From: an uncultured Clostridia bacterium
GTDB lineage: Bacteria; Bacillota; Clostridia; Christensenellales; UBA1242
DNA: 64,000 nucleotides
Assembly: GCA_934748015.1 (NCBI GenBank)
Contig: CAKVHF010000001.1
Coordinates: forward strand, 80,918-144,917
Reading direction: 5' to 3'
Both the position numbers and the translations under genes were made by a program. The notes under the pieces were generated by a model, which saw only the letters and a list, made by a program, of their open reading frames with translations, was not told the DNA's origin and ran no database searches. Below, in pieces: positions 14,043 through 44,200 of this stretch (the first letter of the stretch is position 1; the number at the start of each line of letters is the position of its first letter).

Positions 14043-14054
14043 TAATAAAATTAT

Positions 14055-14088: not shown

Positions 14089-14266
14089 GTTATTATTTGG
14101 TTATTTGTAAGATCTGTGGTATATTAGTGGTACAAGGTATCGGGTGCTAAAAATAAGTAAACTATTATAAGAAATCAATGACTTATATATTAGCTATTAT
14201 TAAGCACATTGGATGCAATTAATCGAATATATAATAAAGTACAAATAATAAATGGTGGTGGTTGTT

Positions 14267-14806
14267 ATGAAAAACTGCATTTGTATAACAGGATTAGCGG
14301 GAAAATTTACCGAAAATATAACCAAGAAATTGGCAAAAGAATTGGATCTATATTATGCCAATGTTATCAACATGCTAGAATTTGATATAATAGATATCCG
14401 CAACACCATCAATATATGCGGATTGGATTATTACAAGAAATTGGTTGCTAAGAAACTAAAAGAACTAACAACTTACGAAAATGACATAGTGTATCTCAAT
14501 TATTATATCTTGCAATATAGCGAGTGTAGACCGGTTATTAGGGAGAAATTCATAACAATATATCTTGATTTGCCCGAACAAAGATATGCTAAACTTATAG
14601 AGGATGAGAACTTAACAGAACTGGAAGCAAAGTTGGAAAAAGGTGTATATAAGCCTAGAAATAAGCATTTTTCATCTATTTGTGATATCGTTGTTAAGTG
14701 CAAGAACAAGTCGGAAATGGATATTGTAAATAGTATCAAGAAAGAAATAATAAATTATTATAAGAAGGTAGAGAGACATGAAAATAGATCAAAAAGCGGT
14801 AAATAA
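14267..14806 (+). CDS. Hypothetical small nucleotide/shikimate-kinase-like protein with a degenerate Walker A
   Basis: ORF track gives 14252. I prefer the ATG at 14267 (MKNCICITGLAGKF...), preceded by ggtggtgg. The N-terminal beta-strand/loop ICITGLAGKFTENITKKLAKEL resembles kinase P-loop folds, but it lacks GxxxxGK[ST]. The 3' end overlaps tkt by 29 nt. Confidence 0.5.
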   Translation: MKNCICITGLAGKFTENITKKLAKELDLYYANVINMLEFDIIDIRNTINICGLDYYKKLVAKKLKELTTYENDIVYLNYYILQYSECRPVIREKFITIYLDLPEQRYAKLIEDENLTELEAKLEKGVYKPRNKHFSSICDIVVKCKNKSEMDIVNSIKKEIINYYKKVERHENRSKSGK

Positions 14807-16804: not shown

Positions 16805-16851
16805 AAACAACTATTTCATGCAAAAAAACGGCATGAGTTAGTTGTTTTTTT
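16805..16851 (+). terminator. Rho-independent terminator after tkt
   Basis: aacaactatttcatgc / gcatgagttagttgtt stem (2-nt internal mismatch), then a T7 run. Confidence 0.8.
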
Positions 16852-16970
16852 GTATAACTTTTCTAAAGAACTTGGTCAGTATTTCTTTTTTTGCCTTAGA
16901 TCGTACTTGGAAAGTTTTATATGTTTGTAAATAGGGAGATTTTGTTCCGATTTTTTGCTGGTTACAATAT

Positions 16971-17115: not shown

Positions 17116-17144
17116 TTGACATAATTAGCTATATTTTTTATAAT
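17116..17144 (+). promoter_or_regulatory. Consensus sigma-A promoter for the giant ORF
   Basis: TTGACA (17116-17121), exactly 17 nt, TATAAT (17139-17144). About 85 nt upstream of the ATG at 17230. Confidence 0.65.
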
Positions 17145-17229
17145 AAATTATATTTATTATACATTTAGTTATAAATAAATTTTTTACAACAAACTAATAA
17201 TAAAATCAATAGATTGATAAGGGTGAAAC

Positions 17230-17295
17230 ATGAGAAAGAAATTAGTTGCTATTATTGTATTATTCCTAGGTGCAATTATGTCACTTGTAGGATGT
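17230..17295 (+). other. Lipoprotein signal peptide with lipobox L-V-G-C (Cys22)
   Basis: MRKKLVAIIVLFLGAIMSLVG|C: positively charged n-region, hydrophobic h-region, [LVI][ASTVI][GAS]C lipobox. Cys codon at 17293-17295. Confidence 0.8.
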
Positions 17296-20200: not shown

Positions 20201-23200
20201 ATGGTGAGTTGCGCTTGATATTTAATATGTCTAATGTAATAGACCGTTTGAACAAATCAAATATCAGTGACCAAGACATATATGATGCTATATTTGGTAA
20301 AGACAATACATCTAAGAAACTAGACTTGGCAATTGTTGCTGAGCAATTTAGTTCTCGTAGAGCATTAGACTATGTTACTCTTACTCTTACTGCTGCCAAC
20401 ATGGTAGATAAGGTTGTGCTAAGTAATATTGTCAATGATGGCGTATCTAGTGCGGTAGAAGATGATGGCTTGTATGCGGAGCAGAGAAATATCACTAATA
20501 GCAATAACATCTACGATATCAATTATGTTATAACTGGCAAAGATGCCAATAGAGCAATATATAACACCAATGTAAGATTGCAATATGGCAATTCTACAGC
20601 GGTAAATGGCAGAAATGTGTTTGAGATTGTAGATGAAAATGGCAATGTTTTGGTTGATGCCAATGGCGTTGCAACTAATTATTTCAAGAACAATTCTTAT
20701 CATGCATACATCAGACTAACTGGTGTTCCTGGTACTCAGATATTGTATATTTCTAGCGAAGACTCCTTTACAATAGTAAATGAAAACATTGTAAGAGATA
20801 ACTCTAAGACTATTAGTTACACAATCTCGGTTAGCGATGGTTCGGCAGAGTATCCTTATAGGATATACAATGTAAATGACTACGCTAGGATGTTGCAAGA
20901 TATTAGAAATGATAATTACTATCACTATACAATTGTAAGAGATATCAATCTTAGCAATGATACTCGATTTAGTCCTAGTGCGTTGAGTGACATCAATGTT
21001 GTTAACGGATCGGGTAAAACATTTGCCATAAACGGTAAATATAGTTATACATCTATGTCTGGTGAGGTTATTAACAACGCTAGACACAAGATCATGTTAG
21101 ATTGGTCTAATGCAACTATCTCTACCTCTGACACAGTTAATTCCTTTGGTCTATTTGCATCTATCAGTGGTGTAAAGATTACCAATGTAACACTTTCAAT
21201 CAATGCTAATATCTTAGCAAAAATAGATAATGATGCCTATATTGGTGGATTTGCTGGTAAGATTAGCGGAAGTAGTGAGTTGATCAATTGTCAGGTTGAG
21301 GGTACAATCCTATATACTGAGTTAACAACTAGCATTAACGGGAAAACTGTATATCTTGGCTCTATGGCAGGCGAGGTTGTCGATAGTAAAGTGTATGTAG
21401 ACGAGGTTAAGCAATTTGGTCAAAACTTTGATGTCTACACCAATATCAAGTTATATAGACAGAAGTCTGACACTACTGGTGTATCTAATACCATCGTTAA
21501 CAAAATGATGATTGGTGGTGCATTTGGTGCTATCACTAATAGTGATCAAACTAAAGGTAAATATAGCGGATTGTCTGTATTTGCACAGATAATTGAAGCA
21601 ACATATCTTGATGGTATATTAAGCACTGATAACGGAAGTTATATTGGTGGCGTAGTTGGCTCTGCAGGAAATGCAAAACTTACTAATATCGAGTCTTATC
21701 CATATATCCGAGCTACACGCAATGTAGGTGGTATGGTAGGAACAATGAGTGGCTCAAATATATCCCTATCTAAGGTTTACTTCATAAGTAATTACAGCAA
21801 CGAGAAGTCAGTTACAGCAATTGATGCTAGCGATATGGTTGGTGGCATGGTTGCTAATGCTGATGGTAATAATAATACAATCGAGTATTCTTATGTTCGT
21901 GGTTTCAATCGCAATAATCCTGATGGTAAGAACTATCTAGGTGATATGCATATTCCATCTAATACAGTTTCCTTTGGTGGCTTGGTTGCCAATATAGGAA
22001 GTGGAAAGTTAATAATTGATCGTGTGTACTTTGATGCAACAATCGGCTTCAACGGGTTGACAACAAAAAGTAGTAAAAATGATGCTAAGAACGTACTTAT
22101 AGGAAATGCTAATGAAAATAATTGCAACTTTGCTAGCAATGTTACAGGTGCATACGCAATTGTTAGAACTAACTTTCCCGATCAAATGACATACAAAGAG
22201 ACTGGATCAACAACATTTATAAGTAATTATTTAACTAGTTTTGGCAAAAATGGCTATCTATATATCAATGGTCAAGAGATTACTTACAGTCTTAATTCTA
22301 CCATAACTGACGGATTAGGCATTAATGCAAACAATAACAATAATACTTATGCATGGTTCTATAATAAAAATTATGCAGATGTCAACAATAGACATCCAAT
22401 GTTGTTGTATCGCAACACAGTATTGTACGATATCATCCCATCCGGTATTGATATTAAGATCCAAACTGACACAGTTAGAAATAATAACCTTGGCTGGTTG
22501 ATTGTAAATAATGACACTGATAATCCAAACAGAAATAGTCAAGTAATTATATTCCATAGTTCCAATTCAGAAGGCAAAACAAATAGATATGTTAACAAGT
22601 ATGTAATTGGTGTAACCAAGGAAGGGAATACTAACTTCAATACTGCAGATGGTTATACATATAACAACTTTATTGCACTAGAATTGCTAGGTAGTGTGAT
22701 TAAGACTGATTATATTAAGTTAATGGCAAAAGATGGCTTTACATTGTCAGTTAAGGGTAATGATACTGGCATTATCTCTATAGATGGCAACATTATTACA
22801 ACCAATGGCTATGGCAGAGTAACACTAGTTGTATCTTATCTATTAGATAGTTCTATCTATGCCGAGATTGAACTTATTGTATATAGCAATATTTACAAGA
22901 TGAATATGACATATACAACAGATAGCCTTAGTAGGGCAACCGATCTTAAAGACACAACTAACAAGGTATTTGTTAACGAAGAGATGTATCTAACTGCTAA
23001 TGTAGTTAATATGTACGATGGTGGCTTTATTGCTCAGAATATCTATTTTGATGTTGAAACAGATATGGGTGCAAGACTAGAAATATTGAAAGATTCTGGC
23101 AAGTTCACATATGCAGGCACAACATACTCTTATGATGAAAATGATAAAGATAATAACTATATATATATAGATAGTATATTAACTAATCGTATCTTCACAA

Positions 23201-26200
23201 TTACTCCAGTAGAGAACAAGAACATCATATTCAATATCACACCTTACTACACAGTTGATACAACTAAGGTTATGGTTGATAGCAGATCTGCAGACTATAC
23301 TATTAAGGTTAGTGCAAGAGCGACAAGTATTGTTATCAATGGCAACAAGACTAGTGCTGAGTTATCTGCTATCGGTACTCAGAACCTAGAATTGGCTATT
23401 ACAACAGCCAATGTGGTTGAGGAAAACGGCAAGTACAGATTGAAAAATCATTCTTTCAACATGTCTGTATACTCCAAAGTATCCAACGAATTAATTGGAA
23501 CAGTTAATAATGTATGTGAACTGGTTGATGAAGTTAAGAATGCAACATTTACACTTGACGAAATTACAGAATTCGACAACATTGTATTTAGCAACAATTA
23601 TTTCAAAGATACACTTATGAATGTTAAGTTGACAGGAATTAAAATTTCTGCAACAGGTAACAACGATTATGTTGTAACATATTATCTATCACTTGTGTTT
23701 AACAAGACAGAGTATCAACGCAACTACAGCACTATCAATATGATCAATGCTGATTATCACATTGTATTTACTCCTAGTTCCAATAGTACAATTGATACTG
23801 TATTCGATTGCAAAATCAAATTAAACAATCCAGTAGATATAGACTTCAATTTCTATACCAATGCGGAGACTAAAGACGGCGAGTTTAACCCACAAGAGGT
23901 TGAGAGTAAATATATTGCACCGGGCAGAAATGGACTTATTAAGTTGCAAATATTTGAAGATTTCAACTCTGCCGATCGTATTGATATGTATTTTGATACC
24001 AACTATCTACAATACATCAGTTACAATCAGATGACTGCATTGACTAGTGTAATTGCTACTAACAATATGGCATATATCACTGGCTATAAAGATATCGAAC
24101 CATATCTTATCTATGAAAATGGTCGTGCAATAGGTATAAGACTAGACAATATTACTTCTACCTACGGCAATACCGAGTTCTTTAACAATATATTCTATAT
24201 TAAGTTGAAGATGCAGAACGAAACTCCTGCAAGCCTAATTGCTAGTGACAAATATCTAGATATTACTATCAAGGCATACGATTATAATGGTCAGCAAGTT
24301 ATGACAGATAGATCGGAGAGATTGATTATTGAGACTCTTCCTGTTGCAGATATCTCCATTGACGGCACAGACTTGACAGTTCTTGAAGTAGGCGACTACA
24401 AAGAGATCGTTTGGGATGCTTACAATTACAACACTTTGCCAGAGGATGAAGTTGACGGCAAATATGGTGTTAAGGTTAATGTAAAATATGCTTATGATGA
24501 ATTAAAAGATTATATGTTCGTAGTAGATGAGGCAGGACTAGAGGCTTATATCAACCTTAAGAGGGACGATATCAGCGACACTGATCGTGCTAAATATCAA
24601 GATATCTTGACTAAATATATCTCTGCTGAAGAGTACACATTCTATATATCTAACACTAACGTTAAGGACAAGTACTATCTAGTGTCTAGGGCAGATATAA
24701 TGGATAGTGATATCGATGATCCATACAGATATATGTATGATCGTATGGATGCCAACGGTAACAGCATGACTATTGAGAAATATTGTTATGCATCTATTAT
24801 TATCACTCTTAGTGTTGAGAAGACCATCAATAATACTATCGAGGTTGCAACTGACGAGGTTGGTGTACAATTAGTACCAGTAGAACTTAAAGATTTGAGC
24901 CTTACTGGACACACAGAGGTGGGTAACGAGCATACATTCCAGGTTCTTAACGGAACATACACAGGTCTTGGCTTTGATATTAACAAAGAGAGCATAAGAT
25001 CTATCGAGGGTGAGTATTCTTACGAGGCTTACAATAATAAGAATGCCGGCAATGGTGCAGAACTAAAAAATTATGATTACTTCTATTACAATGGCAAGTA
25101 CTACAATATTGCTGATTATGCTGACAAAGTATATAGCATCTACAAGGTAAATTCTGATGATCTAATTTGGACTAGAGAATCTGCTGATGGCAAGACTATT
25201 CCAGACAACTATTATTATCTATATAGTTCGGTTGATAAGGGTGAGATATATCAGGCAGTATATGTTAAGATTAACTTTGCAGACGATGCCACAACCAACA
25301 GATATGACCGTATAGATAGTGGCTATTATGGTATTAATGGAATGACTATCAACAATAGTCAAGCAAGATTTAGTTATATTGATGACAACCAAAATGCTGT
25401 TATCGCTGGTTATGGTGAAGACAATGTATATGTATACTACTTTGTGTACAATGATGCCAAAAGAGGACAAAGTATTGCTCTAGTTAAGAGGTTGGAGGGC
25501 AATCAAGGCTTCAGTTATTATAACGAACAAGATGTTCCAGTAACAACTGGCAATACTCCTGAGGTTATCACTGCAGGTTGGTACAACGTTGGCAGTTCGG
25601 AATTCTTGAAATTATTCCCTACTATCACTCAATCCAGTGTCAGATCATCTACACTTAATAGATTTGTAGATGTATTAACCGAATATGGATATAACTATGA
25701 ATTATCCACTGATAACAGTAAGATTGAATATGTAGATCGTACTGATCTAAATAATGTAATCTATCATACAATCATTGATGTTAGTGACCCTACTGCAGTT
25801 ACTTCTTATCTATATGGATATACCAATGTTAAGTTCATCAAGAACCAGTTTGGTAAATATATCAACTACAATAGTAGATATATCAATGTAGATGAATCTA
25901 GAGGCAAGATATATTGCAAGGATGAAGTGCAAGGTGATATCAACACACCTGCAACATATGGCACAATTGCTAACTATTATGCTGATATGGGTAACAATAA
26001 CTATGCACTTATCGCTAGTACATACACAACAACTAGTGTTGCAACTACAACAGATTATTATCGTTACAGAATTGCAGACTTCACAACACTAGAGAAGGAG
26101 AGATTTACTCTTAGCGGTATATCTGTATTTACAGTAGACAAAGATGGTAATAAAGATTATGTAGTTGACTCTAGGGCTAACTTCTATTATCTTGACTCAG

Positions 26201-29200
26201 CCAATTCAACTACTAGATATATCCCTATCAATGTAGGTGATACAACTGCTAGTTACTTAAATAAGTTCCAATTGTGTCGTACTGAGAAGACAATTGTAAG
26301 GAATGGCGTAACATATTATCTAGAGTATTACGCTATTAAGGCAATCAGTGTTAGTGACGATACTGTGATTATGGCACAGGTTGATTACTTCTATGATAAG
26401 GACGGTATAATCAGAGCATTTGTTGATAGACTAGGTAATTCATCAGGTGGTGATGGTATCCATGATGCTAGAGAGGGATACGAGTTAGACGCTGAGGGCA
26501 ACAAGGTTCAATACCGCAAAGAAGGTAATCTAATATACGAGTATATCTATGATGAAGCAACCAATACTTACACCAAGGCAACATATTCTGGTTGTTGTGG
26601 ATATAAGTTGTATCGTTACGATTATCAATTTAGATTGATTATCAATGTTAACTCTAGTTATGACAATCCTATCCCTATCTATGACCAAGAAGACTTCGAA
26701 GCAATGCTTAATGGTCAATCATCGGTAGATGACAATGGTCAGGTGGTTGTAGGACAACATTACATTATGATGAATAACATCAAGTTGACTAATTATTCGC
26801 TAGTAGACAACAACGCTATTGGCAATATCGGCTCTCTTGATGGTAATGGTTATACTCTAACAATCCAGAGTTTTGATACCACTGGTGTTAGAGATAGCAA
26901 GTTAACTAACTTTGGTATATTTGGTACAATTAGCGAAAATACAATTATTAAGAACTTAAATATTAACATTGCACCTTTGCTAGTTACTAGTGACAATGTT
27001 AATACATCACAAGACTTGATCAAGAACTATACAACCAAGGAAGCAATCAATGCTTACGTTGGTAGTAGTGATTATAGAGATCTTAGCAGATACTATGGTG
27101 TAGACCTAAATGCTCAGACTAGCCGTTACTTTGGTAGTGCCAGCGTAGATTTAAGCTTTATGTCAGGTATCAATTTTGGTATCCTTGCTGGTGAGAACAA
27201 AGGTAGCGTAACCAATGTTAAGATAGTTGCACTAGATGACAATATTCTTGATAACGAAAATTCTGAGTATGACAATGACACCAAGAAGGTGACTATCAGC
27301 AATACTTCTTATCAAGGTGATGCTTATACAGTGCTTAATGACGAGAGTATTAAGGCAGGTTATGTAACAACCAATGATTGTATGTATCTATATGTTGCTT
27401 CTAGCCAAGTAATAGATGGTACATACACATCTAACAATATTGCTCCATTTGTAGCAGTCAATAGTGGAATTATAACCAACAGCAGTTCCGGTATACTTGA
27501 CAAAGAAATGGACATAGTCGATGACCTTAATAACATCGTAGTTAGTGAACCTTCTAACGAAAACACATCTACCAGAATGCAGTATTATTTCAATGAAAAT
27601 AATGCAGTAGATGGCAGAGGAACAAGTGCTTATGTTAATATCAAACCATATTATGTAGCAGGTAGCGGAAATATCTCCGGATTTGTTGCTAACAATGCAA
27701 ACGATGCAGTTATCAGTTCTTCATTTGTTAAGGGCGTGGGCATATACAATACAACTCAGATATCACAGAGTTCTAGCGAAAGCAATGCTAGTATCTATAC
27801 TGCAGGTTTTGTAGTAAATAACGCTGGTGTTATCCTTAATGCACATGCCAGTGCTTATAGTTATGATAGTGCTGACAATATGGGCGAATTTATTGCTAAC
27901 AAAGACAAGTATGATGTAAGGTCTTCAGGCAATATTAGCGGATTTGTGTACAATAACGAATCTACTGGTATAATCACCAATGCATACTCTGCATTAGCAC
28001 TCGCAACTAAGGCTAACAATACTGCAGGCTTTGTATACATCAATTCTGGCGCTATCAAGCATGCATATTCTTCAACATACAGTACAGTTATAGACAGTAC
28101 AGGTGGCAGTTCTTCTAGAGCATACGGATCATTCTTCCGTAGGCAGGACTCCAATTATACTGGCACATTTGAAGATTGTTATTATCTAGTTGATACACGC
28201 AAGACACAATCTATAGTCGATGATCCAGCATCTGCTATTGAACATAGTGCAAGCAATCTGTCATTCTTGACTCCAGATTCATTTATCAATTTTGCTTTTG
28301 CTAGCAAAATCGGCATAGATGATGACAGTAGTGTATGGTACATGACTGCTAATGGTCCAAAACTATTGTCTATTATTAGTAGTACATTCTCACACAGACA
28401 ACTTGTTGGCGTAACTGGATTGGAAAATTCTAGTTCACCAGAACTAAGTTATCAAGTAGTTGAATATGTTACACTTAATGTTAATTACACAACTAAGGAT
28501 GCTGGTGGCAATGACACAATCACTAGCGGATTTAAGAGATTGTTCATCAATAGCGATTCTACTCTTAAGGTAGAGGGCGATCTAGAAGATAGACTATATA
28601 AGTTGGACGGAGACAAATATGTATACTACAATGGTGACACTAAGGTTACTGACAATGGAACAGATATTACTATTGATGTAGAAGTATTTAATAGATTGGA
28701 TAAGTTTAGTACTCTAGTTGCTACTTTGGATAAAGATGGCAACGAGGTATGGTCAACACTAGATCTACTAGATATTGCAGTAGAGGATTACAACAATTAC
28801 ATCTTCAGTTATATGTATGATGCTGATTGTGTGTATGGAACTAAGAACAATCCATTGTTGGTAGATAGTGCAGAGAGATTTGTTAACTATATTATCAACA
28901 ATTCTCACGAAGAGAATAGACTGGACGAGAATGGTAACGAGGTTAAGGATGCCAATGGCGACAATGTAATCGATCGTATATTTGGTGCTGGTTATAAGGA
29001 TGACAATAACAACAACTTAGTTGTTAATAATGTCGTAAAATACTTAAGACAAATCAACCATCTTGACTTTGGCAAGCATGGCAAAGATGATGTTAATATT
29101 TTGCAAGATAAGAACAACAACTATAATAAATATTTGAAAGAAATAATCTTCAATGGTGTATATCAAGGTAACAGCCTAGATATCAACAATCTTAACCTTA

Positions 29201-32200
29201 CAGATATGATCAATGATCAATCTAGTGTGTCTAAGAACTTCTATGGATTATTCTCTCAGATGGGTATATACACTGTATCAACAACGGATCCTAATAATGT
29301 AAATAATGTAATAGTATATAGTAATACAGCAGTATTTAAGGATGTTAATATTGAGGTTGTAGAATTCTCTTCTACCGCAATGTCGACAGGCGTAATTGCT
29401 GGTATTGTATACAATAGTGCAATTATCAATGTCAATATCGCTAGTGTTATGAGTGATTATTCTATTATCAAAGGTAGAAACTATGTAGGTGCTATCTCTG
29501 GTATAGTAATTGATAGCAAGATACTAGACACTACAGTATCAAGAATGGCAGTAGTTACAACTACAGACAGTTCAATTGTTCCTAGTATTACTAACAATAT
29601 GTATGACGACTATTTGAGTTGGCGTGCAATAGATAGTTCTAACAAGGATCAGACAATTATTACTTCGTTTAAATCATTTGATCTAGATTATACTGACAAG
29701 AGTGTCGCAGAGATCTATAGTCAATTCAATGCTAAGATCAATGTAGAGATGTCATCTAGTTTCAACTCTATGTCCTATGCAGGATTGGTTGCCGGTGTAG
29801 TTATCAACACTAAGCCACTGGATGGCTTTGAACAGACTGCTGATGCTCTTAGAAGTGCACAAGACCAGATCAATGATGTTAAGGTTATGGATAACTTTAG
29901 CGTAATATCTATCAATGCAGGTGGATTATTTGGTTATGTATCAGAGAATACACATATCAAGAATGCAAAATTGATAGTCGAGAACAATACTGAGACTGAG
30001 GCAGATCGTATCAATCAGAAGATTGTAGGAACTAACTTTGTAGGTGGTATTGTTGCGGAGAACTACGGTATCATAGAGCGTGGACAGGTTGTGTATGTAG
30101 ATGATACGCAAGCCGAAAAAGATGTCGAGGTTGCTAGCCACAACTATACAGGTGCAGATACTGAGACAAACAATATTGATACTATCTTCTCACTTGCACA
30201 AGGATCTACAGGCAGTGTAGGTACTGGCAATGTAGTAAGTGTAGGTGGTATCGCAGGATTTAACAAATATGGTTCTATCATAGATAGTTATAACAGAGTT
30301 AATGTCACTAACAAGAATGCACTTGTTGCTGGTGGTATTGTGGGTTATGCATCTGATAAGTCATATATTGGTTATACATTTACAACTGCTAATGTTATTT
30401 CTAGCAAAGTAATTGGTGGTCTTGTAGGTTTCTACAATATCGAGAATGCACTAGATGATACAAGCGTAATTGTAGTTGACAAGTGCTTTGCAATCAACCT
30501 ATGGGATAATCAGATAGATAAGATTTTGCAAGACAATAGCAATATGACCAAAGATTATGTTCTTCGTATGCCAGAACTGGGCAACCAGCCAATTGCCGAG
30601 GCAACTAAGGTTCAGGCTCTTCCTATCCAAGAGGGTGGAACAGAATATAATTATGTTGAGAAGATTGACGAGTCTAGCATTAATAATTCTAAGAATATAT
30701 ATATAGGTTCTATGATTGGTTATGCAGGTGTAAGCCGTAAGACTGCTTCTGCAACTATCATATCTGGTGGCAAAACTTATGTAACTAACTATTATGTAAA
30801 AGATGCCAATGGCAACGATGTAATTATGCTTGACAATAGCAAAAATTATCTTGCTGGTATATTTGATAAAGAAGCAAATACAGAGAAGGTAAAAGGCTTT
30901 AGCACAACTTATGCTAAACTGGTTAGAAAGAGTGGCGAATCTGTTGATCAGACTGTTATGGAGTATGATGACAGACACAATGTTGCAACTGCTCAACTAT
31001 ACAATGGTGTTGCAGACGAGAGCTTTGGACTAGATAAATTATTAATCGAAGAACAAGATACAGAGAAGGCAACATATTATTGGGATAAGACTACAGGCGA
31101 AGTTCTTCTTAAGGCAGTAGCAGAAGGTAAAGGTCTTAACTTAACTGGTAAGTTGTATGTTGTCAATACTGCTGACTATAGTGCGGGCAAAGTATATGCA
31201 GATTATTCTTATGCTAGTGCATTAGGCAAGCAGACTAGACAATTATTTTTACAGAATATTCTAGGGGTATACAACAATCTTAAGGAAGCAGATACAGACG
31301 ATTACACTCAACAAGAGATTGATACGTTTACATCTGTTAACTTATTTGAGAAAGATTATGTAGAATATAGTTACACTGCTGATGGCGAAAGAGATATGTC
31401 TGTTACACCTCTGACAATTGATGCTAAGTTTGTAGAAGCAACTGGCACACAAGAGCCAGTATGGAAGATGCAAGATAACAATGTATTGCCAGAGTATATA
31501 GTAGGCAAGTACTCTAATTATGTAACTATTCATAATACCGAAGAATTGATTCAAGCACTATCCAGCAACAATACAACCAAGATTTACTCTTTGATGTACA
31601 ACAATGCTGGGTCTAACGAGGCAATTAAATATAACATTTATATCAATCAGAAAGATGTAATATATAACTATGCAATGTTTAACACGATCTTCCGTGGAAC
31701 TTTGCAAGGTAAGTATTATGATGTAGCTAATAATAATGCTGTGTTAGATTCTGATGTTGACCATACACCAGTTATCAATATCTATACAGGCAATTCTCGT
31801 GGTGCATATGCACTAATCAATCAATTTGATTCTGCCGTTATCAAGAATGTTAACTTCAATATCATTATTGATGCAAGCGATGCAGATAATTATACTAATA
31901 TTTATGGCAACAGCAATGGATCGTTCGGATTCCTTGCAACGAGCCTAACAACAACTACTATCAACAATGTAAAAGTTACTTTTAGTAGCATGGAGAGTGG
32001 CAAAGAGATTTACTTGAAGTTGGTAGACAGAGTAGAGGAATCAGGACTAAAGGTTGTTAACAACTTTGGTATGGTATTTGGTTCTTCTATCAATACAACA
32101 ATTGATGGCTTGACTATCAATTATAACAATAATGTATATATTACTACTGGATTGACCAACAGTCTGTCATTAGGTATCGGTTATGCTAGCGGTAATATTA

Positions 32201-35200
32201 TCAATGGATTTAGTATTGAGGGTAGTGAGGGCAATAAGACATTATTTGTTAGACTTAACAATAACCGAATCAACAACGGCAACTCGCTTAACATAGGTGG
32301 CGTTATTGCCAAGAACAATTACAATGTTAATAATAATGTAATAAGCAATGTTAATATAGACTTAAGTTATAACGAAGTAGAGAGAGAAGCTCTTAAGACA
32401 TTTGGCTTCAACTTCAATATCTACTTGGGTGGACTATACGGCTATTCTATGGCTGGTTCTACTAATGACGCTAAGTATATTGCTAATAATGTTAATATTT
32501 CGTTAACAAGATCTAGCTTTACACTAGATGGTGGTTATCAGGCAATCTACGTTGGTGGTATCGCTGGTTACGCAATCAACAATAGCATAACTAATGCTCT
32601 TGCTAGTGCTAGTGAGGTAAGTGAAGGTGTTGCTACTTACACTAAGTTGATTGCAGAAATTGATTATGTTAATACATATATCGGTGGACTTGTAGGTTAC
32701 AATGGAAGAAACAGTTCTGTTTCTGGCAATGATAACCAGACATGGGTAGACATGTATTTGACACTTACAGGCTCTAATAGTGCATTTGTAGGTGGAATAG
32801 TAGGTTATAACGCAACAGGTGCTAGCAAAACTAACACTAATTGCGTAAGTTATGGCACAATACTTATCAATGATGGCATAGATCTTAAGACGTTGTCTAT
32901 CTATGTGGGTGGTATCGCAGGATATTCTGCTTCTGGCGAGTATCAATTAGTAACCAATTATGGCGATATTATGACTTGGAACTATGGAAGATTTGTTAAT
33001 AATAATAAGCCTGATGTAGATCCAAGAATGAATAATGATAAATTGACTGCTAAGTTATTAAAGGATGATATAACCAAAAACACTAAGAATGCAAAGTACT
33101 TTGTAGGTGGATTGATTGGTTATGCAAGCAATGCAACAATCAAGCAATTTGCCAACATGGGTGATATCTATTATGTACTAGGCTCCAACAACTTCTATGG
33201 CGGAATAATTGGTTATAGTAGACTTACTCCTATTGCATTAAATAGTGGTATATCTTATGCTAGATTCTATACTTATGATAATGCTCAGAATAGCAGATAT
33301 AATGCTAATCTATATACAATAGCAGAGGGTTGCAACAGCAACGGAACCAAAGATGTATATTACATCCAAGAGTTCTATGCTAAATATTCTGATCTATATC
33401 AGAGTTACAAGAATGAAGTGAAAGTAGTAGATCCTACTACTGGAAATAACGAAATCAAGATCCAAAACACCGAGTACAACGGCACTCAGGTATATGGATA
33501 CAATACAATTGCATATTTCAATGCATTGAGAGACGGAATTGGTTCAAACAACTTGCAATTGAAATACAACACTGCAGTCGAGAAAGAATCTTATTATCCA
33601 GAACTATATGCTAAGATGAATGCACAGACAGGTGTTACAGATAGCATTACAGATTATTATGTAGTTGGAACTACTACTACTGATACTCTAGGAGGAAAAC
33701 CAGTTGTATTTGTAGGTGCAAATGATAATACTACCGATATTACATTTGATGCTCCTATAGATATTGATTCAAATAGTATTTATTCTTCTCTTCGTGTAAT
33801 AGTTAATAGCACAGAGCCTGCAGAAAATATTTATTCACCATTTGTAAATACAAATAATGGTAGAATAATTAACTGTATTACTTACGGTGAAGTTACTAGA
33901 GATTTTGATGAAAATGACCAAATTAGCTCATTTGCTATAGTAAATAAGGGTGATATTGTAAGATCTGGCGCAGTTGTAACTTATACTGGTAAGTTCACAA
34001 TTGCTGGCACATATACCGAAGATAAGGGTGCAATAACAAGCATTGATAGTGATTTTGTATTCTCTGGATTTGTAGGTGATAACAATGGTCGTATATCTGA
34101 TTGTTATTCAACTGCAAATATTGATCATATCAATAAGGTAGAACAAAAACGTGACGACCAAATCAACTTAACTGGAGATAGCAAAACGTCAGATCATCTT
34201 AACATTGCAGGTCTTGTTTACAAACAAAGTACTAAGACTGACAATGTATATGTAAGCAATTCTTTCCATTCTGGCAAAGTAATTGATTATACAACACCAG
34301 CAATTAGATATGGTGTAGATCAAGATGGAAATATAGGTATATTAACCAAAGATTATAGTGGTCAAGGTAATAATATCTATGACAATAGCAATGTAGAAGA
34401 TCTAGAAGATGGCGTTGTAAAATATTTCAACGACACAGACGATGCGGGTTATAATATTTGGAAAAAGGCTGATAGCCAAAATATCAACTATAACCAATAC
34501 TATATCAACAACATTTGTGTAGAAGGCAAAGATAAATATGCTATGACTGGTATTCAGGCAATATTTACATACTCTGGCAAAACTCAGAATAATGCAGAAT
34601 ATAATAGTTTGTCTGTAGCAGAAAGTGGTGCAGTTGACAAAACTGGAGTATTTAGTAGCGGAAAATATTATCAAATAGATGCTTTGGAGACTATTCAAAA
34701 AACTGGTGACAAAACACGTTCTTATAAATTATTCCAAAACGACTCCAATGCAATTATTATTGAGACTCCTAGAGACTTTGCAAGATTGATTAAGAAATAT
34801 AACAATTCTACACTTACGGCTAATGTTTACCTTTTGGCAGATGAGTTGGATATGTCAGGATTGCTAGGTGTTAATTATTCTGGTATTGAGAAATTAAAAG
34901 GCAATATATATGGTTTTGGTTCAACCAATACATTGCCTAACATGGGTGTGGTTATTAAGAATTTGACATTGTCTACACCTTTGGTAGTTAAAAACAATGG
35001 TGAGATCAAAGGTCTAGTTATAGATAATGCTAATATAATAGGCGGACATTCTGTACTTACCGATGAAAATAATGGAACAATACAATATGTTTCTATTATC
35101 AACACAACACTTACTGTAGATGCCAACAACATTGGTTTGTTTGCAACTGAGAACGAAGGCACAATTGACAGTGTTTACTTGTTAAATGATACAATCAGTG

Positions 35201-38200
35201 TTCAACTATATAATTTGGGCACAAAGAAGACAGATGTGTATTATGGCATAGGTGGTGTTGCAGGTATTAATAATGGCACAATACAGCATGCGAGAGTAGG
35301 TTACGATAGTGCAACAATTAATGGTGTCGGAATTAATTATGTTGCATCCTCTTCCAACAATATTTCGGTCGGTGGAATTGTAGGTATTAATAACAAAACA
35401 GGCGAATTAAATGCAGTTAGCTTAATGAGATCTACTATTGATGCACGTATTGTTAGCAATGTAGGCGGAATAGTTGGTGACAACAAAGGTGAAATCGGTA
35501 TCCAAAAAGGAACCGCTGGCAATTATAGCAAGGATAGAGCAGCTGCTGTGCTGGATAGTTCTATCAATGCTGGTCAGAATACGGGTGCTATTGTTGGCCA
35601 TACTAACAAGTCACTTATCTCTGGTGTTAAAGACAATAAGCATTATGTCTTTGTATATAATACTACTATTGAGTGCGAAGATATAGCAGGCAACTCTAAG
35701 GCCGGTATTGCAATCGGAGCCGTTGATGTAACGAGCGAATCGGTTAAAGTTGATCAAATATTTGTGGTTAATAGTTCGGTTAAAGCATCTGGCACAAATG
35801 TAGGTGGTTTAATCGGTTATGTCAATGCTGACAAAATCAGCCAGGGTAAAAATGTTTTAATAACCAATATTACTTTAAGATCTATTAAGATTAGTGCTAC
35901 AACTAACAATGTTGGTGGCGTAGTTGGTAGTATATTTGCAGGTCAAGATCCTATCAATAATAGCACAACAGCAGTTGTTCAACTATCCAATATCAATATT
36001 AACGAAATTAATATTGAGAACACTAATGGACAGAATATTGGTGGAATTGTTGGTTATGCTAATGGCGTATTGGTTCAAGATGTTGAAATCAAAAATGATA
36101 TAACATCAGCAAGAGGTAACTCTATCGTATCCAATTACAAGTCGGACAATGCTGATAGCGGATCAAACATTGGTGGCGTTATTGGTCTTGCGGTTAATAG
36201 CTCGATCAATGGTGCAATTATATCCAATCTTACTATCAATGCATTTACAGGTAATGTAGGTGGCTTGGTTGGTTATTATGGTCACAATACAGCAACTAAG
36301 GGATTTTTCTCTACAAGTACATTGTTTGTAACAGGTGAGACCAATCAAATAAGTTTGAATGATATTACTATATCTATTACATCTTCTTCAGTTGATGATA
36401 ATAAGAAGTATTCGGACAATGGCAGAGTCGGTGGATTGCTTGGTGCAGAGGCATCTCAATATAGCAACAAAGACGCTATTAAATTATTTAGTGGTGACAC
36501 CCAAGTTACTTTAAATAATATCAAATTAAGCGGTGGTTCATTTGTAGGCGGAATCGCAGGTGTTACATATCACGAGATTGCAAGGGGACAGGTTAAAACC
36601 ACAAAGCCAGGTACTGGCTCAACTCCAGCAACTGGCTCAACTACTGAGACCCAAGCTGCTCTTGCAGTTGTAATAACTAATATTTCAATTAGTTCTTCAG
36701 GCTCTTATGTAGGTGGTGCAGTTGGTTATACCAATAGATCTATCTATGGAGTTAGAATTATTGCTGATCCTACTGGTAGCAATACAATTGTTGCTGCTGG
36801 ACACTATGTAGGAGGTATAGCAGGCTTAGTTGCTGAGAGCAGAGTTCTTAATGATAATGACCCTGCGTCAACAAAACAAGATGCATTATATAGCAAAACT
36901 GGTGTAGAAATTAAAGCAGTTGAGGTATCCAAAATCAGCGTTTCTAGCACATCATTTGCAGCTCAAGCTTATGTGGGCGGTATCGTTGGATGGACTAGTG
37001 CCTATGTAGGTAGTGGATATATCAATGGTGCTAAAAAGGGAAATGTTACATCTCTAGGGGATGTTAAAGTAACAGAAACCCTACTTAATACAGTAGTGGT
37101 ATCCAATGCAACAGTCAGAGCTAATGGTGCGTATGTCGGCGGTGTAGTTGGTAGCACAATTGCCCCAATTAACCGAGTAATAGTTACATCTGAGGCTTCT
37201 GGCGAGTACAATAACATTACTAGTACTAACGGCAACCACGTAGGTGGTGTTGTTGGTAAAACAACTAACAATATATTTAATTCAGTTGTTCAAAATGTTC
37301 AAATTTCTGCTAAGTCAGTAGGTGAGGCAGGTGTTAATTTTGATAAATTCAATCCAGATACTTACCCAGAAGCTAACGTAGGTGGTGTTGCTGGATCGAC
37401 TACTGCAAAACTATATAATGTAATGTTAACAACAGTAGCGGGTGCAGCTGTTCAGAGTAATAACATAATTACAGCATCAGACAATTTCAATAAGAATATT
37501 GGTGGAATTGTAGGTAAGTTATACAATGGTGATGAAGGCAATAAAACAAATCTGGGCAGTAATTATGACAACTATCTTAACAACTGCTCAGTATCCAATA
37601 CAGAGATCAAAGCCAATAATAGCCAAACATCATATATTGGTGGTATCGTTGGTGGTTATGTAGTTAAGACACTGGAAAGTGTTCGATACAATCTGGAAGC
37701 TAAGCAAGTTGCAAGAAGAGAAAGCGCTATTAATTACTTTAGTGGAGAAAAAGATGGCGATATAGTTTACAAATTGCTTGATTCATCTACTAAAAAGTAT
37801 AATAGTATTAATAGTCAATCGATATACAATGTTGAAGTAGAGGGTTATGACTATGTCGGTGGTATTATAGGTGCAGTTACAGGCAGTAACAACAGACAAT
37901 ATGTTTATGATACACAAACTTATGAAATTATCAACCCTGTTAACTTGTCTAATATTAATATAACCAATATTAATGTTAAAGGTGCCAACGAATTTGTAGG
38001 TGGTGTTATTGGTAAGTTATCTGTCAAAAAGCAAGTTGGCAGGGTAGACAATGATTATGTAGATCTTAGTGTTCAAGAAGAACATTTCATCATGACTTGT
38101 ACCAAACAAAATCTACAAGTACTATTCAATAGTAATGCCCAAAATGAACTGATTTCGAGTGATATAAATAGTTTATATGACGGTATTGGTTCCAGCATTA

Positions 38201-41200
38201 GTAAAATTGAAGTTAAAAGCACTAGCCTGCAGAGGTCAACAATTAATGCAAGCGGTTGTATAGCTTATGTAGGAGGTATAGCAGGTTATGTTGATACGAT
38301 TATCGAGACTGCTAATAAGCAATATGTTAATAATACTATCATCGAAGTAGCAATGAAAGATGATCACCAGATAATTATCGAAAATATGGATATTACATCA
38401 TCAGCACAATGTACAGGTGGCGTTGCAGGATATGCTGTTAATGTAGCTGCTAATTGGATAGCACCAATAGAAAACAAATATACTACAAGTGGCAATGAAC
38501 ATAGAACTGGTTTGATTGGTATTAACTCTATCAATATCACCTCATCTCAACAAAGAGTAGGTGGTGTTGTTGGTGATGCAAAGTTTGTAAATGGTAACTA
38601 TGTACTGGTTGGCTCAGATATAACTTCTACTTCAACCAAAGAAGTTACATACATAGGTGGACTATTTGGTAAAATAAATGGAACATTTATGAAAGATTTC
38701 AGTGGCAATGAGCATCAAGGTGATGGGAATAAATATGTTTATGTTAAGCGTTTAAAATTTAATATTTCAAATGGTTCTAATTATATCATAGGCACAACAT
38801 ATGGTGTAGGTGGAGCAATTGGTGCATTGCGTATTAACAATAACATTATTATGTCCGAGCAAGCAGTCAAGGTTGAACAATTGACCATGAATGTGTCTGC
38901 TTGTCATGTAGGTGGCGTAATAGGACATTTGCGAGGATATGGCGAAAATGACGTGGTAGTAAGCGGTGCGGCATACTTGTATAATAGCGAAATTACTGCA
39001 ACAGGTCTATCGCAATACATAGGTGGATTGATTGGTTTAGTCGATCATGATAACCCTAATCACAAAACACATCTAGTTAATCTTCTTATCAATATTATAA
39101 CTATTGAAGTCACTGGTTCTAATGGTCACTATGTAGGTGGATGTATCGGTATGACGACGGGTGATATTGAGACAGCAGCCTTGTCTGATTATGGTTATGG
39201 CTTAAAGCTGTCCTCCAATGGTAGATTTATAGGCGGTATAGTTGGTAGATGTGATGGCACAATTACTGATACAAAATTGAATTCAGCAGTAACAATCGAT
39301 TCAACATTTGCAGGTAGATACACTGTAGTTGATGGCGGTAGTGATGCTGTAGGCAATATCTTTGTATATGATGCATATGTAGGCGGTATAGCAGGATATG
39401 CTAACAAGTTTGGTTCAGCTCCAGCAACCACAGATTTAGTAAATTTTAGTGCTGCTGCTCAGCCAATAAGAAAAGATAATTTAACTTTCAGTTATCAATC
39501 TAGCAACCCATTAGAAACAACTTGGCGAGCCGATGTGGTCGTAAATAACAATTTAACAATAACGGCACTACAAGGTGTTGTTGGAGGAATTGTTGGTTAT
39601 GTTAAAGAATTTTACTCTACTGTGTTTATGGAGTCAGTAATCAATATTGAGACATCTGGACAATCCGTCGGTGGCGTAGTTGGTTATCTAGAAGACAAGA
39701 TGGAGAATATTTATGCTAACAAATTCTTTGAAGAAGAAGGTAAGGATTACAAAAAAGAATATGAACCAGCTATTTCTATCAAAGGAAATAACCAAGAGAA
39801 CACTCATATCTATGGAGACCAATATGTAGGTGGTGTCGTAGGTGGTGGTACAGCTCTTAAATACTATGACGGAACTGCTGCTAGATATCTTAGAGAGCCT
39901 GCAGTCTATATTGAAGATGATTATACAGAATATAAGTTGGCTCCTTATGACAATAATTCATTCAATGCAAGTTTAACTGCAATGAACATGGAAGCGGTTG
40001 CTGAATTGTTCTATCCGGAAAGAATAAAGATAGGCGGTGTTGATTATCATGATTACACTAAGATAAACACGGATTTGTTTAAAAAACCAGATGGTGGGAA
40101 CTATTTGGAAAAAATGCTAAAGGATGATAATCTAAATTCTTATAATGGAATTATTATTAACTTTTCAGCTTATGATAAATACGATAATATTATTAAAAAT
40201 TGTACTTATGGAATGAACTTATACATTCCAAGCGATAATGATAGAGAAAAAGATAGTAGTAAAATTGAATTCATAAGAACAAAGAATACCGAACAAATGA
40301 TGGGATATAATAAGTGCCTAACAGGAGGAACTCAAGGTCAAGAACCTTGGTTATCATTAGGAGCAAAGTATATTATAGCAAAGATAGAATTTGTTACAAA
40401 TGACGTTATACCTATGACTACAGCAACTTTACAGTTTAGTTTTGGTGATACATATAAGTATGACTACAACCACTTGTCCAATATGTTCCTTAGTCTTTCG
40501 GAAAGAATGCAGGACAAAATTAAGGCAAAAGTGACATTCCTAAACAAAGATAAAGATGCAACTAAAACATCAAAAATATATAGCGGATCTCAATATATCG
40601 AATTAATGAAGTTGATCAAAGAAATCAGAAATAAAGGTAACAATTTATATTCAGATATAAGATTTGATTCGGTAATTGTGTATAATGTCAAAGTTGGCAA
40701 AATCAATTTCCAACCTAGAACTGGGCCAGAACCAGATCAACAACAACATGCAAAAAATGACAAATATTTTATTGCAGTTGATAACCTTACTATATCTGCA
40801 ACGCAATATGCAGGTGGCGTAACAGGTTATAGTGTTAACGATTATATTTTTGTCAATGATCCAGGGCATGTTTCCAACATAGACATAACTGTTAACAACA
40901 ACTATGCTGGTGGTATAGCAGGTTATTATCAAAGTAGCGGTAACATAACAGGTATTGCAAAATACATCAATATTACAGGTAGAGATTATCTTGGAGGATA
41001 TGTTGGTGCCAATCAAGGTAGTGCTGAGGTTGCATTTACTGCAGATAATTTGAAATATATTAACATCAACGGAAATAACTTCTTAGGTGGTGCGATAGGT
41101 CGAAATACTGGTGAAGTCCATGGATCGACTATGCAAGTCACAATAGTTGGTAACAATTATGTGGGAGGTATTGCAGGTTTCAGTATTGAAGATATTACAG

Positions 41201-44200
41201 CAGATGTCTCGGACTCTAAAATCTCTGGTAATACATTTGTAGGAGGCATTGTAGGTCAAACTTATGCTGATTTCATGCTCGGTAGATATGCTTCTGCTGA
41301 TGGATATCTGGCTCATATAGGCCATGTTGAAGTATCTGGTTATAGCTATGTAGGCGGAATTGCCGGTAGTGTTAACAAAAGATACGATCATAGACCAAAT
41401 CCTACAGGTGAAATAGGCAAAAACTTAAAACTGGGTTGGGCGTATGTTTCCAATTCTAGTTCTGTTACAGGTGGCTACAATGTAGGTGGCTTATTTGGAG
41501 AAGTAATTGCTGATAATATAGTGGGTAGAGATGGCAATTATGGCGAAGCAGTAGATAACAACACCTGTTTTGCTGGGGTATATGACAGTATTGTTAGAGC
41601 AGATAATGCATCCAATACTTATAACTTTGGTGTATATGCAATGTCATACTATGAGGAAGGTGAGTATGCTAACAATGGACCTCAGAACAATGATAACTAT
41701 TCTTGTGTTGGTGGAATCTTTGGATATGTATGTACAACATTAGGTGATCAAATATTAAAAAATTCTAATGTGGCTAAGGCAAGAGGTTGTGGAGGTATAT
41801 TGCTTAACCGTATTGAAGTTATTAACGTTATGGTTGAAGGCTTGTCCGGTGTCGGTGGTGTAGCCGGTGTGCTAGAAGGTGTCTATCAACCTGGTATTAC
41901 CTATGTTATGGGTGATAGAACAGGCACATACTTGATCAATGGTAATTCATGCGTCGGTGGTGTTATTGGTGCACAACTAGATGCGGTGAGGATTAAAGAA
42001 GATGAAGCACAAATAATTAAGGCAGTATTTAGTGGCAATTCTAATGTAATTGATTATAAGATAGGTAATATGGGAGCAACTAACGTAGGCGGTGCAATCG
42101 GATTATTTGGCAGTATGAAAACTGCAATTGCTAAAAACATACAAAGTGCTTTTATTGGCAAAGACGGTTATGTTAGGGGTGAAGCACAAATAAATTCAGC
42201 CATAATCTATAATGTATACAAGAATAGTAAAGATCCTAATGTAGGAGCAGACTCTGCGGCTAGTTATTCGTATATTGGTAGTCCAGAAGGAAATAATACT
42301 ATTATTAATATATCCAATGGCGTACACAAAAGCCAACTTCCTTTGATTGCTGGAGATAAAGGATATGGATATGGTGCTAAAGCTGTTAATGATACTTATT
42401 ATTATTTTGATTCACATACTCTTACTGATAAGATATTCTTCGTTCAAGGTAACTCTGAAGCAGGTGGCTTAGTAGGCAGAATCAGTGGCCTAATAGAAGG
42501 CACAAACGCGGAAGGAGACAATGCGGTAAGTATTTCCGATGCTAGAACAAAGAGTGCTGTTAAGATGGCTAACTGTAAGATTGGAACAATTAATGTCAAT
42601 GTAATTGCCAATGGCAATGCAGGTGGTTGGTTTGGTTCAGTTAGCTATGCTCAGATTAGTCTTGCTTCCAAAGAAAGCGGAGCTAAGTCGGATGGCAAAT
42701 TAACTATAAGTGAAGGATTCTATAACACAGTTGTACAATCTACTGGTGACAATATTGGTGGTCTGGTTGGATATTTAGAAGGATCTCTATTGAGCAATGC
42801 CGAGAATGGCGATCCATTAATTATTTTCCCTAAGATAAATGCTAACTCCGGCGACAATATCGGTGGTGCTGTCGGCATGGCTCACAATGCATCTATTATG
42901 GGTATCCAGATTGGATTGACTAAATCTGATGAATCGGGCCGTGTATTTATACATGGAGGTAAGAACAACATCGGTGGTATTGTTGGTCGTGTTGATATAA
43001 CAGATAGTAGCTATAAGAAAATAGGCAACAAAAATGAAGAACGAACATTTGTTGTTGGATGTAGCGTTGTATCAACTAAGGTTGTCGGTGAAGAATGTGT
43101 CGGCGGAATAGTTGGATACGGTGTTGGAGTTGTTATTAGTGGTTGTGTTTCTGGTGGAGGTGTTAATACAACTGGGCCAGTAAGTGTAAGTGATACAACT
43201 ATCGAAGGTATTACCTATGTTGGTGGTATTATCGGTTATCACAAATTTACTAATAATACAAACGATAAATATGATGTCAATGATTATAACCCAGATTCAA
43301 CCATTGGTAGCGGAAATCGTATAATGATCTTTGGTGTTACAAACAATGCTGATGTATCTGGCGAGAAATATATCGGTGGTGTCGCTGGATATATTGACCG
43401 TGCAGGTGTTATATTTAAGAATGAAGACCTTGGCGAGAGTGATGTCGGTGGTGTTAAGTATATCAACACATCATATGATAGTAATAATATTGATGAAAGT
43501 GAGACAATAAGTCTTGGTTCTGGTTCGTCTGCAAAATGCAACCCAGATGCAACTATCAGATGGAAAAAACCATTTACCGCTAAGTCAATTAAGGATATTA
43601 ACAATAGTTACAATAGAGAGGATGATGCTAGTACATCAGGCGCTGTGCAATATTCTAGCTTTGATGAGGCTAAGTTACATTTTGTCCAAGAACAGAATGT
43701 AGAACAGACATGGGATGAATTGGCAGGTAGCAATGGTGCTTTCCAATCTGACATTAGTGATATGTTGTTTACACATAGACCGGATTCATCTTCTGGTAGT
43801 ACAAGTAAGTCGGTTGGTCAGACAATAACCGTTAACTATAAGGTTTCTGCAGGAAGTACTACCAAGAAGTATCCTCCTAGCGAAGCGATATTTATAGGCG
43901 ACATAGTAGGCAATAGATATCTAGACAATATGAACCCTAAGGGTACAAGCATTACTATAGGGGATAAGAGATATTTTAACTACAACAATAATCATGCAGA
44001 TAATGTTGTGGATGATAATGATCTTACCTGGAACGATGTTTTGATTGGTGATCAGATAGAATTAACAACCAATAAGTACAAAGAGGGTACGGTCGATATT
44101 GATGTAAGCATGTCAATGCAATGGGTCAGAACGGATTGTTATATTGATATAGACACCGAACTCAATAGGAAAAATACTCTTTCAGGATATACACATACAC

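Follow-up and report, generated by a model that had tools for sequence, protein, structure and literature searches.

The 64,000-nucleotide (nt) window analyzed here (positions 80,918–144,917 of contig CAKVHF010000001.1, assembly GCA_934748015.1, from an uncultured Clostridia bacterium of the Christensenellales) contains a single 9,461-codon open reading frame (ORF), and we think, with the balance of probability tilted modestly in its favor, that this giant gene encodes a lipid-anchored extracellular fiber made of capped beta-helix modules and ending in an NlpC/P60-like peptidase. An initial annotation, made from the letters of the window alone, had described nt 20851–43460 as at least six joined cassettes of the GLUG repeat type, each with a head, a solenoid body and a tail; this range falls wholly inside the giant ORF, whose parts are listed in Table 1. 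As judged by profile comparison, the protein appears to hold about eight solenoid blocks, five of them with a recognizable N-terminal cap (called head below); the blocks are referred to as C1 to C7 plus one short extra module between C4 and C5.

The solenoid blocks are marked by coils with a double-glycine (GG) core: the motif [VIL]GG..G occurs 61 times in the protein, where 0.3 would be expected and none of 300 shuffles gave more than 3, and a hidden Markov model (HMM) of the repeat unit finds 71 units in six separate blocks, so the earlier statement that the repeat regions do not form one continuous array is borne out. Are these coils GLUG repeats? An HMM built from 593 external GLUG units finds 58 domains in the giant protein versus 2.6 per shuffle. 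These matches cover mostly the first half of the canonical unit, and the second half (G-T-I-x-N-C-Y-x-T-G) is mostly lost. The median unit spacing is 41–46 amino acids (aa) and irregular (34 aa in C6) versus 27 aa (interquartile range 26–28) in 120 proteins of the Pfam GLUG family (PF07581) described below; the initial annotation had omitted this non-canonical period. A repeated coil with a V-G-G-L-V-G core is thus present, and a regular ~27-aa GLUG unit with a G-x-I-x-N-x-Y-x-x-G half is not. In C3 the unit HMM finds five GG units (aa 4226–4414), and six motif matches are spread across aa 4080–4414. At the DNA level no repeats are found beyond a short GG-coding stretch, which rules out recent tandem duplication and fits the earlier proposal that the duplications are old or the modules of different origin. 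Self-BLAST and tile-versus-tile phmmer comparisons of the protein returned weak repeat-to-repeat matches alone and no head or tail similarity.

Sequence searches of segments of the protein against NCBIfam, PHROGs and the PDB were empty. Used as queries, the cassettes retrieved next to nothing (a word-indexed homolog search gave no match for C2 and one weak match for C5a), so a synthetic canonical GLUG module was used, purely as bait, to obtain real GLUG proteins as a yardstick. It retrieved 6,475 proteins, the best 120 of which (P0003–P0122) are all annotated with PF07581, are 270–390 aa long and share a layout of head, 27-aa coils and tail; the general statement in the initial annotation that stand-alone GLUG proteins are organized in this way therefore holds for this set. 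The external head reads DPYxI..L...HFxLxxDIDLS..W.PIG..FxGxFDGNGxxIxNL..VGLFG and the external tail YWDxETSGQ...KTTxEM...WDF..W.I.E..YPxLxW. Two of the proteins, P0010 and P0012, carry tail-linker-head junctions within single ORFs, so the chaining of complete modules already occurs elsewhere. Both lie in a locus (L087, GCA_017880035.1, positions 5527–10233) where six or seven short adjacent GLUG-annotated ORFs look like one multi-module gene broken by frameshifts. Against the PDB, a profile of the retrieved GLUG proteins matched 3N6Z (2.7e-31) and the beta-helical N-terminal domain (NTD) of IgA1 proteases (~1e-20). The latter has been described as a small autonomous beta-helix of ~290 residues (PMC7695701), and 3N6Z was linked to GLUG repeats earlier (PMC4021314).

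A head profile was built from 84 head segments of the retrieved PF07581 proteins only, with signal-peptide columns and the GG coil removed beforehand; 100 shuffles scored no higher than 3.9 bits with it. The heads of C1, C2 and C3 score above every shuffle: C2 (aa 3145–3246) is the best of all heads, with 25.0 bits by HMMER and 97% by hhalign, followed by C1 (aa 1205–1323; 14.6 bits and 95%) and the partial head of C3 (aa 3930–4011; 6.9 bits and ~22%). The C5 head (aa 5839–5936) has 0.6 bits by HMMER and 87% by hhalign over 87 columns. Adding the window heads and those of an ortholog (below) to the external profile brought no gain for C3–C5. Compared with one another by the Smith-Waterman method, the heads gave z values of 7.1 (C1–C2), 3.5 (C1–C3), 3.6 (C1–C5) and 3.2 (C3–C4). 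The ordered set of a helix, DIxL, FxGxxxGNG and GLF is present five times, and one of the eight GLF-type motifs in the whole protein lies shortly after each of the five heads.

The head strings quoted in the initial annotation are all where it had placed them (Y1208 = nt 20851, N3146 = 26665, N3874 = 28849, Y4764 = 31519 and I5842 = 34753). Its claim that the blocks open with a similar head fared unevenly: the likeness is strong for C1 and C2, partial for C3, visible by hhalign only for C5 and not significant for C4, and the strict regular expression that it gave for the head matches C2 alone when taken literally. A candidate sixth head (aa 7776–7815, at the start of C6) reaches z 3.7 against C1 only, and its hhalign register is ambiguous. 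The count of "at least six" cassettes accordingly becomes five heads, and eight blocks that match a profile of the whole module.

This whole-module profile, drawn from the external PF07581 proteins, was aligned by hhalign at 93–98% with C1, C2, C3, C4, the first 600 aa of C5, C6 and C7, and at 84% with aa 5451–5770, a part that had been taken for a spacer; three control segments gave 0.1–0.2%. The short extra module found there contains the protein's best match to the canonical unit (GFVGDNNGRISDCYSTAN), and its W5744 aligns with the Trp of the canonical tail. An AlphaFold2 model of C1 (aa 1201–1737), made with an alignment of the window cassettes and 118 external GLUG proteins, has a predicted local distance difference test score (pLDDT) of 65.8 and a predicted template modeling score of 0.70; confidence is high for a strand-helix-strand cap and two series of short strands, and low for a loop of 74 residues and for the final 90 residues. 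In Foldseek searches this model lies closest to 3N6Z (E 1.1e-4), then to IgA1 proteases (2.5e-3 to 1.4e-2), and then to pectate-lyase-like helices, SRRP and tailspikes. C1 is therefore predicted to be a right-handed parallel beta-helix of the GLUG/IgA1-protease-NTD type. The corresponding model of C2 (pLDDT 53.5) is confident in the head alone; it had no Foldseek match below E 0.1, and every weak match was a beta-helix. The structural expectation attached to the cassettes was thus supported by C1, whereas the quality of the C2 model does not allow a judgment. Taken together, the head profile, the whole-module profile and the C1 model uphold the view that there are several separately capped modules of GLUG type, not one uniform array.

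Do the modules also end in a common cap? The Trp...Pro tails named in the initial annotation are present as strings at aa 1708–1727, 3702–3713, 4744–4757 and 5445–5450, but no independent profile recovers any of them, and pairwise comparisons among them are at noise level. Tryptophan is scarce in the protein (42 in 9,461 aa), and a post-hoc pattern, W.{5,18}P.[LY][LIY], picks out exactly W1709, W3703 and W4745, which are three cassette ends, against 0.2 matches expected. W1709 and W3703 fall in a near-invariant Trp column of the external GLUG set in a MAFFT alignment. Between window and ortholog, identity rises to 53% in the C1 tail from 10–27% in the 130 residues that precede it; the head and tail of C1 are both peaks of conservation in that comparison. 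The tail registers of the whole-module hhalign alignments are inconsistent, with some window Trp residues aligned to a dockerin-like extension of a few external proteins, and these were not counted as support. As caps, then, the tails are plausible but unproven, and YYPELY at the end of C4 is the weakest of them.

The N-terminus (window, MRKK-LVAIIVLFLGAIMS-LVGC; ortholog, MKKK...TLLGC; both read by eye) has a positive n-region, a hydrophobic h-region and a lipobox of the form [LVI][ASTVIL][GAS]C, which the initial annotation had not mentioned. The sorting signal LP.[TSA]G (LPXTG) is absent from the entire 9,461-aa protein, whose C-terminus is the peptidase-like domain instead, so the lipobox is the sole anchor motif seen, and the protein lacks the sorting signal of a sortase-anchored fibrillar adhesin. 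The C-terminal domain and the extra module at aa 5451–5765 had likewise been overlooked. In the C-terminal domain, DCFGFV (Cys9364) and KHVAIY (His9412) are in register with DCSGFV and RHVGIY of Escherichia coli Spr (2K1G), which makes Cys9364 and His9412 candidate catalytic residues. The N-terminal region, the 1,417-aa spacer and aa 8735–9339 had no match in Pfam, NCBIfam, PHROG or the PDB, even with profiles that include the ortholog, and contain no internal repeats. The description of nt 22411–26664 as Ig-like spacers finds no support in these searches: no Ig family appeared at E values up to 10, the PDB gave nothing with a profile that includes the ortholog, and comparing the profile with itself showed no internal repeat.

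Several results weigh against a chain of capped GLUG modules with a distal peptidase. Pfam GLUG scores 16.1 bits on C1, 14.8 on C4 and 13.8 on C7 (gathering score 20.5); C2, C3, C5 and C6 gave no match, nor did a scan of the protein in two overlapping ~5,000-aa halves. These sub-threshold scores, and the absence of a recorded Pfam match for the called gene, are due to the long period and to the fact that mostly a half-unit is kept. The C4 head (aa 4762–4834) is colinear with the profile at 1.3 bits and 0.7% by hhalign, C7 has no detectable head, external tail HMMs (53 and 25 columns) and an hhalign scan found no tail, and the tails are of low confidence in both AlphaFold2 models. Residues with pLDDT below 50 account for a third of the C1 model and for more than half of the C2 model, and the beta-helix models, whose alignments are dominated by GLUG sequences, are alignment-guided consistency checks and not independent proof. 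Finally, about 40% of the protein (the N-terminus, the spacer and the C-terminal 600 aa) has no assignable fold, and the NlpC/P60 match (PF00877; 16.8 bits, E 0.0067) lies below its gathering score of 23.

Could the protein instead be one long irregular beta-helix with large insertions, or two or three such helices, and not a chain of six or more complete cassettes, so that the C3–C5 heads and every tail would be coils that have diverged or mere chance resemblances? The poor scores of the C4 head, the HMMER score of the C5 head, the headless C7, and tails that no profile detects and that resemble one another no more than noise would all be expected of such a protein, and the long low-confidence inserts in the C1 and C2 models indicate that large insertions within a helix do occur. 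Nonetheless, we think it unlikely: the heads of C1 and C2, both of high significance, are located far into the chain (starting at aa 1205 and 3145), the hhalign match of C5 extends across the full cap, the order of helix, DIxL, FxGxxxGNG and GLF recurs with each of the five heads, and three W...PxL sites stand exactly at block ends. We therefore retain the reading of separately capped modules.

The giant gene has its own start signals. A site identical to the sigma-70 consensus precedes it by ~85 nt, a terminator-like hairpin follows the transketolase gene upstream (Table 1), and the gene appears, from these signals, to form its own transcription unit. The G+C content is 33–38% throughout the gene and its flanks, which have the same composition. 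Upstream lie a ribosomal-protein/secY/adk/map/rpoA cluster, a shikimate-kinase-like gene and the transketolase gene; downstream are a convergent 449-aa gene and then, 2 kb downstream, a gene for a PBP5-type carboxypeptidase. The 449-aa neighbor adjoins the giant gene on 18 contigs, in the same context each time, and at least 21 contigs from ENA, Logan or NCBI encode a SecY identical to that of the window, among them a 1,084,506-bp ENA scaffold of which the giant gene makes up 2.6%.

Relatives of the protein are few. Another assembly holds a strain variant, a fragment of 3,088 aa with 95% identity; when 1.84 billion representative proteins were searched exhaustively by phmmer with C1, nothing else matched. 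Of the transketolases encoded by GTDB species representatives, those nearest to the window enzyme come from an "uncultured Christensenella sp." (63% identity) and an "uncultured Clostridia bacterium", L008 (58%), which places the organism in an uncultured Clostridia lineage close to metagenome-assembled genomes labeled Christensenellales. On the L008 contig (CAMEKS010000023) a giant ORF at 5318–14503 stands directly behind the transketolase gene. This syntenic ortholog is colinear with window aa 1–3047 at 34% identity until the end of the stretch examined; ~3.4 kb further of the same contig could carry an ortholog of C2. The giant protein has thus diverged faster than the neighboring transketolase (34% versus 58% identity between window and L008). 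Among more distant relatives no ORF of at least 1,500 aa was found in the flanks of the locus, a scan of genome contigs with C1 and two scans of metagenome contigs with alignments of the orthologs returned nothing, and no homolog beyond the two species was found by phmmer with C1 and the metagenome-contig scans. The conserved chromosomal context and the synteny in L008 rule out a mobile element or phage as the origin of the gene. Judged from context and comparison, the giant gene is native, conserved in position and fast-evolving.

That an assembly chimera, or a non-gene open frame in low-complexity AT-rich DNA, has been mistaken for a gene is very improbable. The missing Pfam record, the near-absence of homologs and the failure of an exact look-up to find the protein in a collection of 15 billion proteins would suit such an artefact, but a 28.4-kb stop-free frame at 35% G+C cannot be chance, an independent scaffold of megabase size carries the identical called gene of 9,461 aa, there are a 95% strain variant and a colinear 34% ortholog with conserved motifs, and promoter, Shine-Dalgarno (SD) site and lipobox are all present.

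Table 1. Features of the giant gene and its start region (positions in the window; aa numbering of the 9,461-aa protein)
Feature	aa	nt	Strand	Remarks
Terminator-like hairpin		16818–16855		3' of transketolase
Promoter-like site TTGACA-17-TATAAT		17116–17144	+	12/12 sigma-70 consensus; ~85 nt 5' of ATG
SD-like AAGGGTGA		17219–17226	+	Precedes ATG of giant ORF
Giant ORF	9,461 aa	17230–45615	+	Identical 9,461-aa gene called on 1,084,506-bp ENA scaffold
Putative signal peptide and lipobox MRKKLVAIIVLFLGAIMSLVG/C		17230–17295	+	Signal peptidase II (SPII)-type lipoprotein signal; L008 ortholog equivalent ...TLLG/C
N-terminal non-solenoid region	23–1204	17296–20841	+	Colinear with L008 ortholog, 35% identity
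Module C1	1205–1727	20842–22410	+	5–6 GG coils; tail W1709–Y1727
1,417-aa spacer	1728–3144	22411–26661	+	"Ig-like" in the initial annotation; 40% identical to ortholog
Module C2	3145–3715	26662–28374	+	GG-poor body, long low-confidence inserts; tail VWYMTANGPKLL; whole-module hhalign 94%
Module C3	3874–4757	28849–31500	+	Head split by insert (helix at 3874, rest 3930–4011); tail VWKMQDNNVLPEYI
Module C4	4762–5450	31513–33579	+	Weak head; 7–8 GG coils; ends YYPELY; body hhalign 95.5%
Extra short GLUG-like module	5451–5765	33580–34524	+	GG-poor; not in the initial list
Module C5	5839–7551	34744–39882	+	Head 5839–5986; ~32–34 GG coils, longest run of the protein
Non-repeat insert	7552–7775	39883–40554	+	Possible C5 tail at W7707 (QEPWLSLGAKYII), by eye only
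Module C6	7776–8305	40555–42144	+	12–13 GG coils, 34-aa period; whole-module hhalign 97.6%; possible head 7776–7815
Block C7	8405–8734	42442–43431	+	Seven GG coils; no detectable head
C-terminal region, ~600 aa	8735–9339	43432–45246	+	No detectable family
NlpC/P60-like papain-fold domain (predicted)	9340–9461	45247–45612	+	Pfam match aa 9357–9421; outside the initially annotated range
GG blocks (unit HMM)	1330–1556, 4226–4414, 4983–5331, 5999–7551 (~32–34 units), 7854–8305, 8412–8734

Some other genes of the window may be recorded here. The convergent 449-aa gene (45706–47055, minus strand) encodes an N-terminal transmembrane (TM) segment and belongs to no family; its product might, for example, be a partner or immunity protein. 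Between 49031 and 58246 lie consecutive genes, none matching Pfam significantly, that may be a further surface or envelope module; they code for a secreted protein of 1,186 aa whose C-terminus carries a TM anchor, a coiled-coil protein of 942 aa with multiple TM segments, an acidic protein of 310 aa and a Lys/Glu-rich coiled-coil protein of 479 aa, the last with a sub-threshold match to ACTMAP-like_C (20.6 bits versus a cut-off of 27). An 84-aa ORF at 9957–10211, between map and infA, has no Pfam family on record and is kept in all four of the contigs inspected.

How might such a protein be deployed? In the arrangement that we propose, a Sec/SPII signal and the lipobox would tether the N-terminus to the membrane of the monoderm Clostridia cell, and a chain of right-handed beta-helix modules, interspersed with two long non-solenoid regions of ~1,200 and ~1,400 aa, would extend from there. 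At least five modules open with an N-terminal cap built in the order strand-helix-strand, "Y-x-L-x-x-D-I-x-L", "F-x-G-x-x-x-G-N-G" and "G-L-F", and about three more solenoid blocks follow. The internal cap helix would close the beta-helix core, so that every capped module most likely folds on its own. The product would be a segmented rod, long enough to cross the cell wall, and it would display binding surfaces and a distal peptidoglycan peptidase outward, most plausibly to other cells. Of this scheme, the data show the ORF, its anchor motif, the map of modules and repeats, the homology between the heads and real GLUG proteins, and a beta-helix model for C1; the independent folding of the modules, the rod geometry, the enzyme activity and its target are what we infer.

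The same architecture could have a housekeeping job, as a scaffold or coat that crosses the wall, with the NlpC/P60 domain serving to remodel the peptidoglycan of the producing cell itself. The position of the gene beside a ribosomal-protein/rpoA/transketolase cluster, which is conserved in the two species, and the carboxypeptidase gene downstream are in keeping with such a job, and NlpC/P60 lipoproteins such as Spr/MepS are autolysins. Nonetheless, it seems to us a minority prospect: the peptidase is ~9,300 residues from the lipid anchor, so that it could hardly act on the cell's own wall unless the fiber folds back, the fast divergence relative to the transketolase is typical of exposed interaction proteins, and the phmmer search and metagenome-contig scans found no homolog beyond two species. 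The distance between anchor and enzyme and the fast divergence favor an outward-facing role of the lipid-anchored fiber, in adhesion or attack. A still more specific version, in which the fiber is a pole of more than 100 nm with a distal peptidase for attaching to the walls of neighboring bacteria or breaching them, is distinctly improbable on present evidence. Polymorphic toxins of the contact-dependent inhibition type have a C-terminal toxin domain followed by a same-strand immunity gene; here a C-terminal peptidase-like domain is present, and the next gene (45706–47055) is convergent and without family.

How does the giant protein compare with known systems? With the GLUG modules of 3N6Z (BACOVA_03286, "putative IgA1 protease") and of the M26 IgA1 protease NTD (6XJA, 6XJB and 7UVK, from Gram-positive bacteria) it shares the N-cap layout and the x-V-G-G-L-V-G core. 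It differs from the PF07581 and IgA1-protease modules in that the period is 41–46 aa instead of 27, the second half of the unit is mostly lost and the canonical tail is unrecognizable; moreover, one module here has ~32 coils, compared with the ~290-residue beta-helix of the IgA1 proteases (PMC7695701), and there is no M26 protease domain. The head-solenoid-tail plan is common to it, the stand-alone GLUG proteins of 270–390 aa and the multi-module genes of L087, but the window protein is 9,461 aa long and has five to eight modules of 315–1,700 aa, non-solenoid regions, a predicted lipoprotein anchor and a C-terminal peptidase-like domain. The cassette architecture is thus an elaboration of a known plan, unusually large and divergent, and not a new principle.

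Giant surface proteins are also known from other small genomes. Giant1–5 of Apilactobacillus kunkeei are extracellular proteins of 3,000–8,000 aa with beta-solenoid domains in small-genome Firmicutes (PMC12863079). Like these and the binding regions of serine-rich-repeat proteins (SRRP; L. reuteri SRRP 5NXK), the window protein is a giant, fast-evolving surface protein with beta-solenoids that takes up a percent-level share of a 1–1.5 Mb genome, and SRRP was among the weak Foldseek matches; those proteins have one N-terminal solenoid on a long stalk, whereas multiple capped solenoids are present here, and no sequence similarity was detected. For the giant proteins of Omnitrophota a role in the degradation of prey cell walls has been proposed (bioRxiv 10.1101/2023.11.21.568195). 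The concept is the same, a very long beta-helix-containing protein combined with a wall-degrading capacity, and the likeness is one of concept only; those proteins have 30,000–85,000 aa, many transmembrane segments, SecA-like domains and antiparallel beta-helices and belong to another phylum. Spr/MepS (2K1G), also a lipoprotein, aligns with the C-terminal domain at the D-C-x-G-F-V and H-V-x-I-Y motifs; Spr is an autolysin of 188 aa, whereas the domain discussed here, with its sub-threshold scores, forms the very end of a chain of 9,461 aa.

Few proteins encoded by this very small genome of a gut bacterium are as large, and sequence searches hardly detect it. Recognizable capped modules allow "dark" giant genes of this kind to be parsed into units for modeling and expression. 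The N-terminal lipid anchor, the rigid stalk of several modules and the distal NlpC/P60-like domain suggest a testable surface role, in adhesion or wall attack, and if the pole described above were real, it would represent a contact-dependent attack or episymbiosis device, independent of any secretion system, in a monoderm gut Clostridia bacterium with a reduced genome.

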